Shown here piece by piece: positions 32,149 to 39,010 of a stretch of 64,000 nt of DNA. The DNA lies in the NCBI GenBank assembly GCA_000004985.1, contig GG738849.1; one strand, written 5' to 3'. The first letter of the stretch is position 1, and the number at the start of each line of letters is the position of its first letter. The notes under the pieces were generated by a model that worked only from the letters and a program-made list of their open reading frames with translations, ran no database searches and had not been told where the DNA came from. This DNA is from Naegleria gruberi. Lineage: Eukaryota. The translations under genes were made by a program, and so were the position numbers.

Positions 32149-34020
32149 ATGGCTCCAATGAAGACTGCTGCTGTTACTACTCCAGCAACTACCACAACCA
32201 CAACTACTCCAGTCACTACCACAGCATTATTGCAAAATGTTCAATCCACACTTTCTAAATCCCTTGACACTTCTCTCAATGTCATTGGTAAACAACTTCA
32301 AACTCTGGGTGTTAACCTTCCACAAGATCAACAAGAAAAGCTTAGCATGGCTGTTGGTTTAACAGGAGTTGGTGCCACTCTTTATATTTTGAATAAGATC
32401 TGCAGTAAGATTATGAGAATGCTTACATTACCAAAACCAAGTTTTGCCAAGAAGGATTACGATGTAGTCATTGTTGGTGGTGGTATTGGTGGTTGTGCAT
32501 TGGGAAGTGCATTGTCTAAGGCTGGAAAGAATGTGTTGGTTCTTGAAAGAGATATGAGTGAGCCAGATCGTATCATTGGTGAATTGCTTCAACCTGGTGG
32601 TGTTCAACATTTGAAAGATTTGGGACTCGGACATTGTCTTGAAGGAATTGATGCTGCCAGAGTTTTTGGTTATCAAGTTTTCTATGGTGATGAACAAGTC
32701 AATTTGCCATACCCAGCTGATTCCAACAGTAAGGTTGGTGAAAAGGTCGAAGGTAGATCATTCCACTATGGTAGATTCATTATGAATTTGAGAAGAGCTT
32801 GTGAACAAGACGGGTAAGTATCAGTTAATTTTTTCACAAGTGTGATTGAAATATTTTATAGAGCTAAGATCTTGGAAAGAACTGTTGTTTCATTGATTGA
32901 AAAGACACCAGGTTTGATTGAAGGTGTTCAATATAAGGAAGGTGATGCCACTGTTGAAGCTACTGGTAATATCGTCGTTGTCTGTAACGGTGCTGGTAGC
33001 TCTTACACTAGACAAGTTCGTTCTGATAAGGTCGGAAGTGGTAACAAGCCATTGGTTGTTTCTCAATTCATTGGTTTGGAACTTGCTGCTTCTGCTGACA
33101 AGTTGCCAAGACCAAATCACGGAAACGTATTCCTCTTGCCAGATGCTCCTTGCTTGCTTTACCCAAATAGTACAACTACAGTTAGATGTTTGATCGATTT
33201 CCCTGATGGAGATGCCAACAAATTACCAAAGAGAGGCGAAGAAATGGCCAAATACCTGCTTGAATATATCATGCCACACTTGCCAGAAAATTTACATGAA
33301 TCTTTCAAAGCTGAAGTTGATGCTGGCAGAATTAAGGTTGTTCAAAATCGTGAAATGCCAGGTGAAACACCAGAATCACTCACCAAGAAGGGAGTTGTTC
33401 TGATTGGTGATGCCATGAATTGCAGACATCCAATCACTGGTGGTGGTATGACTGTCACATTCTCCGATTGTAAGGAATTAGTTAAGGCCATTGTTCAAAT
33501 TAAGGATTTGAACTGTGTTTCTGAAGTTGATGAAGCAATTCAATCATTCTATGTTAACAGATCTAAGGTTGCAAGCACTATTAACATTCTTGCCAACGCA
33601 TTGTACAGTATCTTTGCTCCACCATCTGGAAGCAAATCTTGGGAAGCATATAAGAGTGAAGGTAAGAAGCCAGACGCTCTCTCAAACAATGACAGCATGT
33701 CAATTATGCGTAGAGCTGTTTTCGGATATTTCAAGAAGGGTGGTATTTGTCAAACTGGTCCATTGTCATTATTGAGTGGTATTTGGCATTCACCATATGG
33801 TCTCATTGCTCACTTCTTCTCTGTGGCCGTTATTGGTTCAGTTGATCTCATTAAGGAAGGAGGTATTTTGGGTATCTTTGGAAGTATATATAAGAGTTTG
33901 AAGATGATAACTGGTGCTACTACTCTCATTGCTCCACTTATTGCTGAAGAACGTTTATTATCTTGTATTTTCCCTGGTTTCATTTGGAGAAGAAAGCCAC
34001 TTCCACACCACCAAAAGTAA
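32149..34020 (+). CDS. squalene monooxygenase (squalene epoxidase), copy A
   Basis: Exons 32149..32813 and 32862..34020. Intron is 48 nt, GTAAGT..TATAG, phase 2, and the join gives …ACEQDG|AKILERTVV…. FAD-binding DYDVVIVGGGIGGCA, LQPGG, and NCRHPITGGGMTV match squalene monooxygenase. T-rich N-terminal extension with one TM helix. Confidence 0.8.
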
Positions 34021-34379: not shown

Positions 34380-36099
34380 ATGGTAAATACCTTTCAGAAC
34401 TTTCACCTAATTGCAAACATGTTCCACCTCGAAAGTTTATTTCAACTGTTTCACACTTCACATAAGATGTGGACAATAACTGGTTGTGGTCTTGTTGGCC
34501 TAATCATTCACAGGATATTAAACAAGTTTTACAAACTCCTGACATTACCAAAACCAAGTTTTGCCAAGAAGGATTACGATGTCGTCATTGTTGGTGGTGG
34601 TATTGGTGGTTGTGCATTGGGAAGTGCATTGTCTAAGGCTGGAAAGAATGTGTTGGTTCTTGAAAGAGATATGAGTGAGCCAGATCGTATCATTGGTGAA
34701 TTGCTTCAACCTGGTGGTGTTCAACATTTGAAAGATTTGGGACTTGGACATTGTCTTGAAGGAATTGATGCTGCCAGAGTATTTGGTTATCAAGTTTTCT
34801 ATGGTGATGATGAACAGGTCAATTTGCCTTATCCAATCGTTGAGGGAGGAAGAGCAGAAGGTAGATCATTCCACTATGGAAGATTCATTATGAATTTGAG
34901 AAGAGCTTGTGAACAGGATGGGTAAGTATCAAATAGTTTTCATATCAACTTAATGAAACCGAATGTTAAAGGGCTACATTATTGGAAAGAACTGTTGTTT
35001 CATTGATTGAAAAGACACCAGGTCTGATTGAAGGTGTTCAGTATAAGAAAAACAACAACGATTCAACTGTTGATGTCACTTGCAAACTTGTGATTATTTG
35101 CAATGGAGCTGGTAGTTCATTCACTAGACAAGTTCGTTCTGATAGATTTGGAAATAAGCCATTGGTTGTTTCTCAATTCATTGGTTTGGAACTTGCTGAC
35201 AGTGCTGAAAAATTACCAAAACCAAATCACGGAAACGTTTTTGTTTTACCAACTGGACCTGTTTGCTTTACCCAAACAGTTCTTTAACAGTGAGATGTTT
35301 AGTCGACTTTCCACATCCTGATTCGAATAAGTTACCAAAGAGAGGTGAAGAAATGACCAAATACTTGCTTGAATATATCATGCCACACTTGCCAGAAAAT
35401 TTACATGAATCTTTCAAGGCCGAAGTTGATGCTAGCAGAATTAAGGTTGTTCAAAATCGTGAAATGCCAGGTGAAACACCAGAATCACTCACCAAGAAGG
35501 GAGTTGTTCTGATTGGTGATGCCATGAATTGCAGACATCCAATCACTGGTGGTGGTATGACTGTCACTTTCTCCGATTGTAAGGAATTAGTTAAGGCCAT
35601 TATTCAAATTAAGGATTTGAACTGTGTTTCTGAAGTTGATGAAGCCATTCAATCATTCTATTCAAATAGGAAAAAAGTTGCATCCACAATTAATATTCTT
35701 GCAAATGCTTTGTATTCGATTCTTGCTCCTTCATTAACAGTAGTAAGAAATGATCAAGAGAAAACAATACACAAAGATGACACAGTTTCCTTATTGCGTA
35801 GAGCTGTTTTTAGGTACTTACAAAGGGGAAGCTTTTGTCAAACTGGTCCATTGTCATTATTGAGTGGTTTGTGGCATTCACCATATGGCCTTTTATTTCA
35901 TTTCTTTTCTGTTGCCTTACTGGGTTCAGTTGATCTCATTAAGGAAGGAGGTATTTTGGGTATATTTGGAAGTTTATATAAGAGTTTGAAGATGATAACT
36001 GGTGCTACTACTCTCATTGCTCCACTAATTGCTGAGGAACGTTTATTATCTTGTGTGTTTCCTCGATTCTTTTGGAAGAGAACTGCACCGATCAAGTAG
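34380..36099 (+). CDS. squalene monooxygenase paralog, copy B (frame-disrupted; possible young pseudogene)
   Basis: ATG at 34380. Exon 1 is 34380..34921 and a 50-nt GTAAGT intron has its acceptor at about 34971. It is about 90% identical to copy A from 'LTLPKPSFAKKDYDVV' onward but has an unrelated 55-aa N-terminus. Relative to copy A it carries a 1-nt deletion near 35263-35270 (A: ccttgcttgcttt; B: cctgtttgcttt). That creates a stop (…PTGPVCFTQTVL*), after which the copy-A-homologous frame continues intact to a TAG at 36099. Confidence 0.6.
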
Positions 36100-36506
36100 C
36101 TGTAATGGTCTTATCTGCTCACTCGTGTGCCTCAACAATTATGAATAAATCTGAAATACTTACATTATTTGTTGTTCTAGAGAATCTCTTGTCCTTTGGA
36201 AAGGTCTTTATTGTTATGGTATTAGTGCTTGGGGGGTGGAAACTGTAGAACTCATTCTACACAGCATTCATGAGTTAACTGATGAATGGAATCAACGTCT
36301 ATATTATTATATAACTGTAGTTTATCTAATACCAATCTCCTTAGTTGTTGACAATGGATTTCATTGATTATTCTAAAGACGCATATTCAATACCGGGAAT
36401 TGAAATATGAGCGAAACTTTCCCGCCATTTCGAAAACCCGGACCGGATTCTATTTCCCTTAATTTAACAAGACAACATTTCCAAACAATTTATAACAAAA
36501 AACAAA

Positions 36507-37182
36507 ATGGCAAAAGCTGAATTTCTAAAAGCACCAATTCATGATCTTTACGCCTGGGCTCGTACCAGTTCATTGTGGCCAGTTTCCTTTGGCTTGGCCT
36601 GTTGTGCAGTAGAAATGATGCACACCTCAGCATCTGTAAGTTTATTGATCATGTTACACATTCTTCAATGTTGATTGGTGTTAAAAAGAGATATGATATT
36701 GAAAGAATGGGTATCTTTTACAGACCAACTCCTCGTCAATCTGATGCCATGATTATTGCTGGCACTTTGACAAATAAGATGGCACCAGCACTTCGTAAAG
36801 TTTGGGATCAAATGTCTGAACCAAAGTATTCAATTTCAATGGGATCTTGTGCGAATGGTGGTGGATATTATCATTATTCGTATCATGTTGTGAGAGGTGC
36901 TGATCAGATAGTTCCTGTGGATGTTTATGTTCCTGGTTGTCCTCCAAGTAAGTAATTGTTAGTTCAATTATAGAATACTAAATGGAATGATAGCTGCTGT
37001 GAGTATTAAAGTATTAAATAAGTGAATTAACATTCATTTAGGAAGCATTATTGTATGGTATTTACATGTTACAAAAGAAAATTAAGAGAAATCCATATAG
37101 AGCTGATGTGATTGCAGAAGATTTCAATCATTATCCAGGAAAGGTTGAAAGAAATCAAATAACACCACTCAATCAATTGTAA
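36507..37182 (+). CDS. NADH:ubiquinone oxidoreductase 20 kDa subunit (NDUFS7/PSST, complex I)
   Basis: Four exons: 36507..36635, 36689..36947, 36994..36998 (a 5-nt micro-exon 'CTGCT' flanked by GTAAGT and GTGAGT introns) and 37042..37182. Translation gives …[20 protein letters not shown]|[12 protein letters not shown]…[37 protein letters not shown]|TA|[19 protein letters not shown]…. The 'PPTAEALLYG' junction matches NDUFS7 homologs exactly. Confidence 0.75.
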
Positions 37183-37237
37183 TTCAAGTGGAGGAATTAA
37201 TGGTGAATAAATAAATATATTAAGGGTGTAGGAAATT

Positions 37238-39010
37238 CTATAAATCCCAAATATCTGGTGAAATTCCATTTGATGATTTGGAGGTTGATTGATCATTCTC
37301 TGTCATGGAGTTTATGAACTCTATTACTGAAGATAGAAAAGTATCCTGATTTTCTTGATTCCAATCCACATGTGTTTCTATAAAATCAGTCGACGAAACA
37401 ACTGTTGGAAATGGATCAGACATGACAATTTGTCTTTTTAGAATTTCACTACATTCCTCAATTAATTGCTTGTTACTTTTGTAGACATTTTTGAATCTCG
37501 CTCCTAATGATTCGAGGGCTTTCAAATCTTTTTCCAGTAATGCAAAATTATCAAATGAAATAGTTTTTCCAGATGATGTTCGAATGGATGACTTTCTATC
37601 ACGTCTTTTCTCCTCAATTTCCTTACAAAGATTCAAATGAAATTCACATGCTTTTCTTATTCCTACATCTGTGAAAGGATAGGCAAATCTAAGTTGTTTT
37701 TGAATATAAAACTGATATCAAAGAGATAGATTACATACTTGAAAAGATCATTCTCAGTTAGGAGTGTAATTCTCAGTGCAGTTTCCTCAATTAAGGATTC
37801 TCCAGAAATTTGAGGAATCTTCATAAAGAACATTAACCTAAAGCCATCACTAATAATATTTCTCACCAAGTTATCAAGATCCATATAATTCTTTGATATG
37901 CATGATTGATCCTTCATGTTGGTATCAATCACCACACTCATCTTTAGTTGATTTGCAAAACCAACTACGCTTTCTAATAAATATTTGAAAATCAAGTAAT
38001 TGGAAGAATCAGGTTGACTATTTTTCAAATAATTCCAAACTTCAGGCATTATAAAATCTTGAATCGATTTACCTTGCAGTATTTTACAAAAATTGACTAA
38101 TGCCGAAATAAGTGCAGTAAAATCTCCCACAGAATCATTATCACTCACATAGGACAAGAACAAGTATGATTGATGAAAATTTCTCTCAAATATGTCGACT
38201 ATTTCCATATCATCCTTTCTTTTCAAAAAGTATAAATCAGCATAATGTCTATAAAATCTTGTCTTCTCCTCTTGACAAGATGCTCTTAAATATAAACTAA
38301 GAGCACAACACCCCGCAGCATAATACATATTATCAAAGCACTGGAATGAATATTTGTGAATTTGTTTTTCACATAAACCAGCAGCAAGCTCTGCTAGTTC
38401 ACTATCAGCATTGAATTGATAATACAGTGAAAGCAGAGCCGAATACCAAACCAATAGACCCTTCATTTCTTCCTCTGATTTAATCAACTCATTAAATTCC
38501 AATAATTCAGTCTCCTCCACTTGTAAACACAACTCTAGACCATTCATTGTAAAGTGGGAAAACTTTTCTCTCGATAGAATAGGACACCCATTCGCTAATA
38601 TATCAAAATAAAAGTTTACCAATATCATACCATCAGGGAGGAGAACACCTTTCCATTCGGGACTAATTTTCCTCTTCTTTCTCTTTGAATTATCCAACAA
38701 ATTTGATTTTCTTCCTTTCCTTGGTTCATACTGAATTTTCATCATCATTCAAAATGTTTACTTCAAAAAGAATTTAAATAAACGTACGGAACAAGTAATT
38801 CCCCTTGTGGAGCAATAGGAACAGGCAGGTAATTTCTTGTCACACTAATTATAATTAATAAATTTAATTATTTCGGAATGAAGAATTTACCTTTTTGTGA
38901 TTGGTTTTACATTTGATACATGAAATTGGGTAAAATTGTTGTGGTGGTTGCTGTTGCTCTTCATTACTATCTGAAGTAGCAAAAGATGGGCTAGGAGGTG
39001 TTGTGAACAT
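37238..39010 (-). CDS. Zn(II)2Cys6 (GAL4-type) zinc-cluster transcription factor with fungal-type middle homology region
   Basis: Four exons (minus strand): 38891..39010, 38788..38844, 37739..38730, 37238..37688. Introns are 46, 57 and 50 nt. The N-terminus, spliced across the first intron, reads SCIKCKTNHKK|CDKKLPACSYCSTRGITC (CX2CX6CX6CX2CX6C), followed by a basic KRKKRK stretch. TAG stop. Confidence 0.7.

Follow-up and report, generated by a model that had tools for sequence, protein, structure and literature searches.

The gene and its predicted structure

In the 64,000-nt stretch of Naegleria gruberi DNA that was analysed (the window), the evidence supports a homolog of the complex I subunit NDUFS7/PSST/NuoB at positions 36507-37182 of the plus strand, here called gene C. 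When three short introns (53, 46 and 43 nt) are removed in silico, an open reading frame encoding 177 amino acids results, in which the second and third introns are separated by a predicted exon of only 5 nt. The features of the locus are as follows.

36507..36635, plus strand: exon 1, from the ATG at 36507; its protein ends in ...MMHTSAS, and its N-terminus resembles those of heterolobosean homologs
36636..36688, plus strand: predicted intron 1, 53 nt, GTAAGT...AAAAAG, phase 0, placed by its length and by gap-free alignment to PDB homologs
36689..36947, plus strand: exon 2, starting with RYDIERMG and ending ...GGT TGT CCT CCA A (phase 1)
36948..36993, plus strand: predicted intron 2, 46 nt, GTAAGT...TGATAG, phase 1
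36994..36998, plus strand: predicted micro-exon CTGCT, 5 nt, which would finish the codon A|CT (Thr) and add GCT (Ala)
36999..37041, plus strand: predicted intron 3, 43 nt, GTGAGT...ATTTAG, phase 0
37042..37182, plus strand: last coding exon, opening GAA GCA TTA TTG TAT GGT, with the stop codon TAA at 37180-37182
37044..37045, plus strand: distal AG within GAAG, the acceptor in the reference annotation
36949..36979, no strand assigned: left arm of an imperfect inverted repeat, 31 nt, partner of 37010-37040
37010..37040, no strand assigned: right arm of the inverted repeat, partner of 36949-36979

An in-frame TAA lies 14 codons 5' of the ATG at 36507. Excision of intron 1 fuses ...HTSAS to RYDIERMG with no gap relative to PDB homologs, and exon 2 is 90% identical to a second N. 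gruberi copy, paralog A (tblastn). Putative branch points, recognised by consensus resemblance only, are TACTAAA at 36976-36982 in intron 2 and AATTAAC at 37025-37031 in intron 3, both 11-12 nt 5' of their AG. The micro-exon itself, TGATAG|CTGCT|GTGAGT, has a canonical AG before it and a canonical GT after it, and its flanking introns of 46 and 43 nt are of workable length. The coordinates and sequences of the introns, CTGCT and the exon ends had been proposed in a sequence-only reading of this DNA, and on re-reading the sequence all of them proved correct to the base. That reading had also spoken of "the NDUFS7 gene"; the family assignment holds by profiles and solved chains, but the gene is one of three paralogs.

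Identity of the product

The spliced 177-aa product scores 91.7 bits against PF01058 (cut-off 27), 230.6 bits against TIGR01957 (cut-off 142.7) and 242.7 bits against NF005012 (cut-off 116). Residues 3-148 of the micro-exon product align without gaps to solved complex I PSST/NDUFS7 chains, and the segment vpgcpptaeallyg is identical between the product and the best-matching of these chains. All four cysteines that ligate the iron-sulfur cluster N2 (CC...C...CPP; CCxxE...GSC...GCPP) are kept, in columns that are invariant across 118 homologs. The profiles and solved structures of the family are thus matched end to end by the product of gene C which, like other heterolobosean homologs, has no presequence and carries a lineage-specific tail. 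In a protein search the nearest relatives were heterolobosean, with N. gruberi first (81%), followed by Willaertia and Acrasis. Elsewhere in the window, the ORF at 8912-11260 matches a predicted N. gruberi protein with 100% identity.

As a separate observation on this lineage, an N-terminal presequence is absent in every heterolobosean NDUFS7 homolog seen, the conserved core beginning directly (window 36507), and the heterolobosean homologs seen share a lineage-specific C-terminal extension past KKIKRNPY (window 37090-37179).

Evidence for a 5-nt micro-exon

All GT/GC-AG models in the interval 36880-37100 with either one or two introns and an open frame as far as the conserved C-terminus were enumerated, which gave 384 in-frame models (27 with one intron and 357 with two). 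Just 1 of the 384, with introns at 36948-36993 and 36999-37041, produces PGCPPTAEALLYG (GCPPTAEALLYG), and the donors that it uses are the strongest of the enumerated set. The claim that a micro-exon is the only route to the conserved PGCPP-TA-EALLYG junction is borne out by this count. In an alignment of 118 homologs the residues P-G-C-P-P, Ala132, Glu133, Tyr137 and Gly138 never vary, and Thr131 is conserved to 90% or more; the micro-exon alone restores Thr-Ala-Glu-Ala, and one other in-frame model deletes Ala-Glu-Ala. On the two NuoB profiles (NF005012 / TIGR01957) the micro-exon product scores 242.7 / 230.6 bits, the annotated product 228.3 / 216.3 and the product with intron 3 retained 219.2 / 209.0. 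Retention of intron 3 does yield the divergent C-terminus that the earlier reading had offered as the alternative outcome, but that reading had overlooked a second alternative, the in-frame single intron at 36948-37045 that is considered below.

The arrangement is also difficult to obtain by chance. The interior of the 94-nt unit (intron 2, micro-exon and intron 3) was shuffled 200,000 times, and sub-introns of at least 30 nt each were required. An AG-N5-GT of any kind appeared in 11% of shuffles, one with a GTRAGT/GTATGT donor in 0.24%, and one coding Thr-Ala at a frequency of 6e-5, while Thr-Ala together with a strong donor appeared in 0 of 200,000. The real unit of gene C contains a single AG-N5-GT candidate, as does the corresponding unit of contig L009, which represents a third copy (paralog B, below), and the two lie at homologous positions.

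The lengths of the two introns agree with those of their surroundings. A crude survey of the window for candidate introns that bridge open reading frames found 17, compared with 1-2 in reversed or complemented control sequence, almost all with GTAAGT donors and with lengths of 34, 43, 43, 44, 45, 48, 48, 48, 50, 50, 50, 53, 63, 92, 97, 121 and 153 nt. Because these window introns cluster at 43-53 nt, lengths of 46 and 43 nt are typical and a length of 94-98 nt is atypical. Many of the candidates carry a YTTAAY-like motif 10-20 nt 5' of the AG.

For transcripts, the micro-exon model predicts the mRNA strings CCAACTGCTGAAGCATT, CCAACTGCTGAAGCA and CCTCCAACTGCTGAAGCATTATTG (junctions 36947^36994 and 36998^37042), the single intron of the reference predicts CCAACATTATTG (junction 36947^37046) and CCTCCAACATTATTGTATGG, and skipping of the micro-exon to the proximal TAG predicts CCAAGAAGCATT (junction 36947^37042) and CCTCCAAGAAGCATTATTG. 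RNA-seq of N. gruberi exists under PRJEB23822 (PMC6142364). The 177-aa micro-exon product was not found by exact-sequence look-up in a collection of 15 billion proteins, and a protein search for transcript-derived proteins with the junction and the C-specific tail found none, its matches being only intronless relatives. Taken with the comparative evidence that follows, the sequence makes the 5-nt micro-exon CTGCT the best-supported model for gene C, to which a probability of about 0.8 was assigned, and we infer that CTGCT is included in the mRNA.

Conservation in the paralogs

Cluster look-ups revealed at least three NDUFS7 copies in N. gruberi, of which paralog A is intronless and paralogs B and C bear introns. 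The N. fowleri and N. lovaniensis orthologs of paralog A (EFC44165, 186 aa) consist of a single exon each, and the genes of Willaertia and Acrasis are likewise intronless. Paralog B (EFC44194.1) is annotated as a protein of 131 aa that stops at ...GCPPNG. That a 5-nt exon is hard for gene finders to call, as had been remarked from the sequence, is illustrated by this model, which ends at the very spot where the micro-exon would be needed. Over the conserved core, identity is 88% between C and B, 86% between C and A and 90-91% between B and A.

Genomic DNA for comparison came from two contigs of the same ENA metagenome, L008 for a variant of C and L009 for B, so that the comparative support comes from a single divergent paralog and a single strain that is nearly identical. 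Exons 1 and 2 of L009 translate identically to EFC44194, and L009 accordingly stands for paralog B. Contig L008, a strain variant of C, matches window 35613-38205 at 98.1% identity. Inside the gene it shows 11 differences, all of them outside the micro-exon and its splice sites, intron 3 and the last exon. The introns of paralog B (55, 79 and 59 nt) lie at the same three positions as those of C, intron 1 being L009 346-400. At the homologous site, L009 739-743, there is a candidate 5-nt exon CTTGT that would encode Thr-Cys; the spliced product of B would have 179 aa and would end in ...LNQL*, as that of C does, and the predicted mRNA string is CCTCCAACTTGTGAAGCTTTG.

The inner splice signals of the two paralogs, TGATAG of intron 2 and GTGAGTATT of intron 3, are identical at 15 of 15 positions, as are the outer GTAAGT and TTTAG, while the intron interiors are identical at 32 of 62 positions (about 52%) with about 29 gap columns. 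At interior-like rates, identity at all 15 positions would have a probability of about 5e-5 (a post-hoc estimate). The comparison with related copies that had been suggested from the sequence thus turned out in favour of the micro-exon, in that the 5-nt exon and its inner signals are kept in paralog B and unchanged in the strain variant, these being the only two comparators. A scan of the metagenome with CCNGGNTGYCCNCCNAGTRAGT for further intron-bearing copies gave 39 matches, 0 of them NuoB genes.

Selection on the last exon provides a further argument. When B is compared with C, the first 20 codons of this exon give a dN/dS of 0.086/1.04 if read in the predicted frame, and a ratio of about 1 or more in either of the others; the values are 0.14/1.16 for exon 1 and 0.06/0.48 for exon 2. 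Purifying selection on the last exon is seen in the predicted frame alone. This pattern argues that B and C are functional genes, in which the frame of the last exon needs 2 (mod 3) nt after exon 2.

The second residue of the micro-exon differs between the paralogs. The Cys in B, read from a metagenome contig and not from NEG-M, adjoins the N2 ligand at a position where 118 of 118 homologs have Ala. Either strict conservation does not extend to the encoded residue, or paralog B is in the course of diverging.

The reference annotation and the single-intron alternative

Gene C is not unannotated, a view that could be discarded once an exact look-up found a 174-aa reference model. This model, EFC48844.1 / XP_002681588.1 (NAEGRDRAFT_30514), is present in GenBank, RefSeq and UniProt, and it is exactly the product of a single 98-nt GT-AG intron at 36948-37045 that ends at the distal AG of TTTAGGAAG, yields ...PGCPPT|LLYG... 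and makes CTGCT intron sequence. (The 90%-identity cluster of EFC48844.1 has a 46-aa metagenome fragment as its representative, and the entry was missed by homology search and found by exact look-up.) The 98-nt intron is canonical and in frame, an inverted repeat that bridges the outer intron ends (described below) could favour its removal in one step, and the same single-intron alternative is in frame in paralog B too; this last agreement is not independent evidence, because the GAA GCN codons by themselves bring it about.

Against a single intron stands first the protein itself, from which Ala132 and Glu133, invariant in 118 homologs, would be removed, with a loss of 14.3-14.4 bits relative to the micro-exon product on both NuoB profiles. 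Spliceosomes usually choose the first AG past the branch point and prefer YAG over AAG. The single intron requires the distal AAG (37043-37045) to be used over the T-rich proximal TAG (37039-37041) that lies 4 nt upstream. Moreover, 98 nt is twice the modal intron length (43-53 nt), the internal TGATAG and GTGAGTATT, conserved at 15 of 15 positions, are left unexplained, and 5-nt exons were beyond the reach of the gene finders of 2010. Judged on all of this, the single intron is an unlikely account of the gene. EFC48844.1, which lacks Ala-Glu-Ala, and the truncated model of paralog B are most likely gene-finder artefacts.

The pair of acceptors resembles tandem alternative 3' splice sites of the NAGNAG type, in that gene C has two AGs 4 nt apart of which the reference picks the distal one. 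NAGNAG-like acceptors are, however, spaced by 3 nt, whereas the 4-nt spacing in gene C places the two sites in different frames, each needing its own upstream structure.

Inclusion of the micro-exon and possible redundancy of the gene

A different alternative accepts the micro-exon at the level of the gene and holds that it is included partly or never, so that gene C would mainly give truncated products, by retention of intron 3 or by skipping to the proximal TAG, or would be a decaying, redundant paralog while paralog A supplies the functional subunit. With paralog A intact and orthologs of it present in N. fowleri and N. lovaniensis, C could indeed be dispensable; the invariant Ala is lost from the micro-exon of paralog B; and micro-exons of plants often retain a flanking intron (PMC8831610). 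Decay is nevertheless difficult to reconcile with the strong purifying selection seen between B and C across the whole coding sequence, last exon included, in the correct frame only. The four Cys ligands and the position of the stop (...LNQL*) are kept in both B and C, and the splice signals are intact in all three sequences. An exact look-up of the products of C expected from retention, skipping and read-through, and of all tested versions of B, found none of them in the protein collection. Partial or absent inclusion appears decidedly improbable on these grounds, and constitutive inclusion of the micro-exon is the preferred reading.

An inverted repeat across the 94-nt unit

The unit formed by intron 2, the micro-exon and intron 3 forms an imperfect palindrome around its midpoint, with 24 of 31 positions complementary (77%). 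This score was reached by 0 of 3000 shuffles (mean 16.5, sd 1.2) and by 0 of 210 units built from real pairs of window introns (maximum 21). It is 25/31 in the strain variant (L008 1332-1425) and 18/31, the background level, in paralog B. In a hairpin folded with RNAfold, the micro-exon and the inner splice sites lie in the apical loop. RNA structure was rejected as an explanation, since the z score of the hairpin energy is only -1.8 in C and -1.1 in B, while the complementarity itself is statistically real.

The repeat may have been left by an inverted duplication, may serve to set the order of splicing, or may have some other origin or role, and by joining the outer splice sites it could favour skipping of the micro-exon. 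One specific proposal is a selected 31-bp hairpin that either serves as a device for splicing order or for the tuning of inclusion, or is the trace of an intron 3 that arose as an inverted copy of intron 2; we regard this as rather doubtful. Its structural counterpart, with the micro-exon and inner sites held in the loop and the outer 5' splice site and the branch and 3' region of intron 3 buried, is to be taken with the same reserve. If the device were real, it would set the order of the two reactions or tune inclusion against frameshifting skipping, and if intron 3 were an inverted copy of intron 2, a concrete route for the birth of a micro-exon would be at hand.

It might also be proposed that the 94-nt unit is one palindromic insertion (foldback or transposon-like, of the introner type), with the micro-exon as a by-product. 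The 31-nt inverted repeat, centred exactly on the unit and scoring above all shuffles and control units, speaks for such an insertion. A single insertion is insufficient, however, to explain why the central CTGCT codes for ancestral residues, and both introns are present in paralog B, yet the palindrome is absent there (18/31). As regards the other hallmarks of introners and transposons, no other copies of either intron occur in the 64-kb window, and the flanks of the unit show no target-site duplication. An origin by one insertion is therefore scarcely credible. A stwintron or recursive splicing is ruled out, as the 5 nt must stay in the mRNA.

A proposed route of splicing

If the micro-exon is spliced as predicted, the short introns of Naegleria would be recognised by intron definition, with splice sites paired across the intron, and introns 2 and 3 would each be defined separately. 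An exon of 5 nt is probably too small to hold a 3' splice-site complex and the U1 snRNP together, which would make sequential removal of the introns most likely; the order in which introns 2 and 3 leave is likewise something that we infer. Constitutive use of CTGCT would complete the Thr codon and add the Ala codon to give ...PGCPP-TA-EALLYG..., and the restored residues would directly follow the fourth Cys ligand of Fe-S cluster N2.

Relation to known micro-exons

The predicted structure of gene C belongs to a rare but known class that is often misannotated. In plants, ultra-short exons have been described that include 1-nt exons in APC11 and VPS55 and an RT-PCR-validated 5-nt exon in a rice transcript, and detained flanking introns have been argued to mean sequential removal (PMC8831610). 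Gene C shares with the plant micro-exons (1-15 nt) a tiny internal coding exon within a conserved motif, canonical splice sites and a strong GTRAGT donor, and in both cases the exon was missed by annotation, which led to shortened or altered reference proteins. It differs from the plant cases in that it lies in a heterolobosean protist, is flanked by very short introns (46 and 43 nt) and is known here from sequence alone. The intronless copies differ as well: in plants they have been ascribed to reverse-transcriptase-mediated intron loss, whereas in the family of gene C the intronless state looks ancestral (PMC8831610 for the plant case).

Another example is found in the CYP621A P450 genes of Fusarium, which have a single-nucleotide exon supported by 20 orthologs and confirmed by SRA reads (PMC12940212). 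The same logic of phase and motif applies there, with a tiny exon between short introns and an intronless homolog as guide, whereas in gene C the exon has 5 nt rather than 1 nt and the support comes from two paralogs and one strain variant. Neither Naegleria micro-exons nor these locus tags were found in any paper in a search of the literature.

Two reference proteins would be corrected if the micro-exon is confirmed, namely EFC48844.1, which lacks three residues beside the N2 ligand, and EFC44194.1, which is truncated there; comparative work on mitochondrial complex I draws on both. Few exons of 5 nt or less are on record, and confirmation would add a protist example to them, one handled by a spliceosome that works on introns of 43-53 nt. 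With three N. gruberi paralogs, two of which share introns, the family offers a compact case for the study of intron gain and micro-exon origin.

Origin of the introns

As the genes of Willaertia, Acrasis, N. fowleri and N. lovaniensis are all intronless, the intronless state looks ancestral in this family. The three introns common to B and C suggest either a gain in a young paralog lineage or an old paralogy that was followed by losses. An intron position inherited from a distant ancestor was considered and rejected: Toxocara has no intron near the site, and the phase-1 intron of Mytilus, 12 nt upstream, occupies a position that is not shared. The Mytilus intron (L050 15029/15907) lies inside the Gly codon of PGCPP and has the same phase as Naegleria intron 2.

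The NDUFS7 models of Mytilus edulis and Toxocara canis (289 and 294 aa) each contain one exon twice in tandem, which makes the proteins longer than they should be. In Mytilus the two copies (L050 7788-8000 and 8026-8226) differ and could be mutually exclusive exons, while in Toxocara (L049 3625-3846 and 5576-5797) they match at 100% and probably reflect a duplication made in the assembly. Upstream of gene C, the first 464 nt of L008, the counterpart of window 35613-36077, also match window 33504-33988 with 79% identity, which suggests a local segmental duplication.
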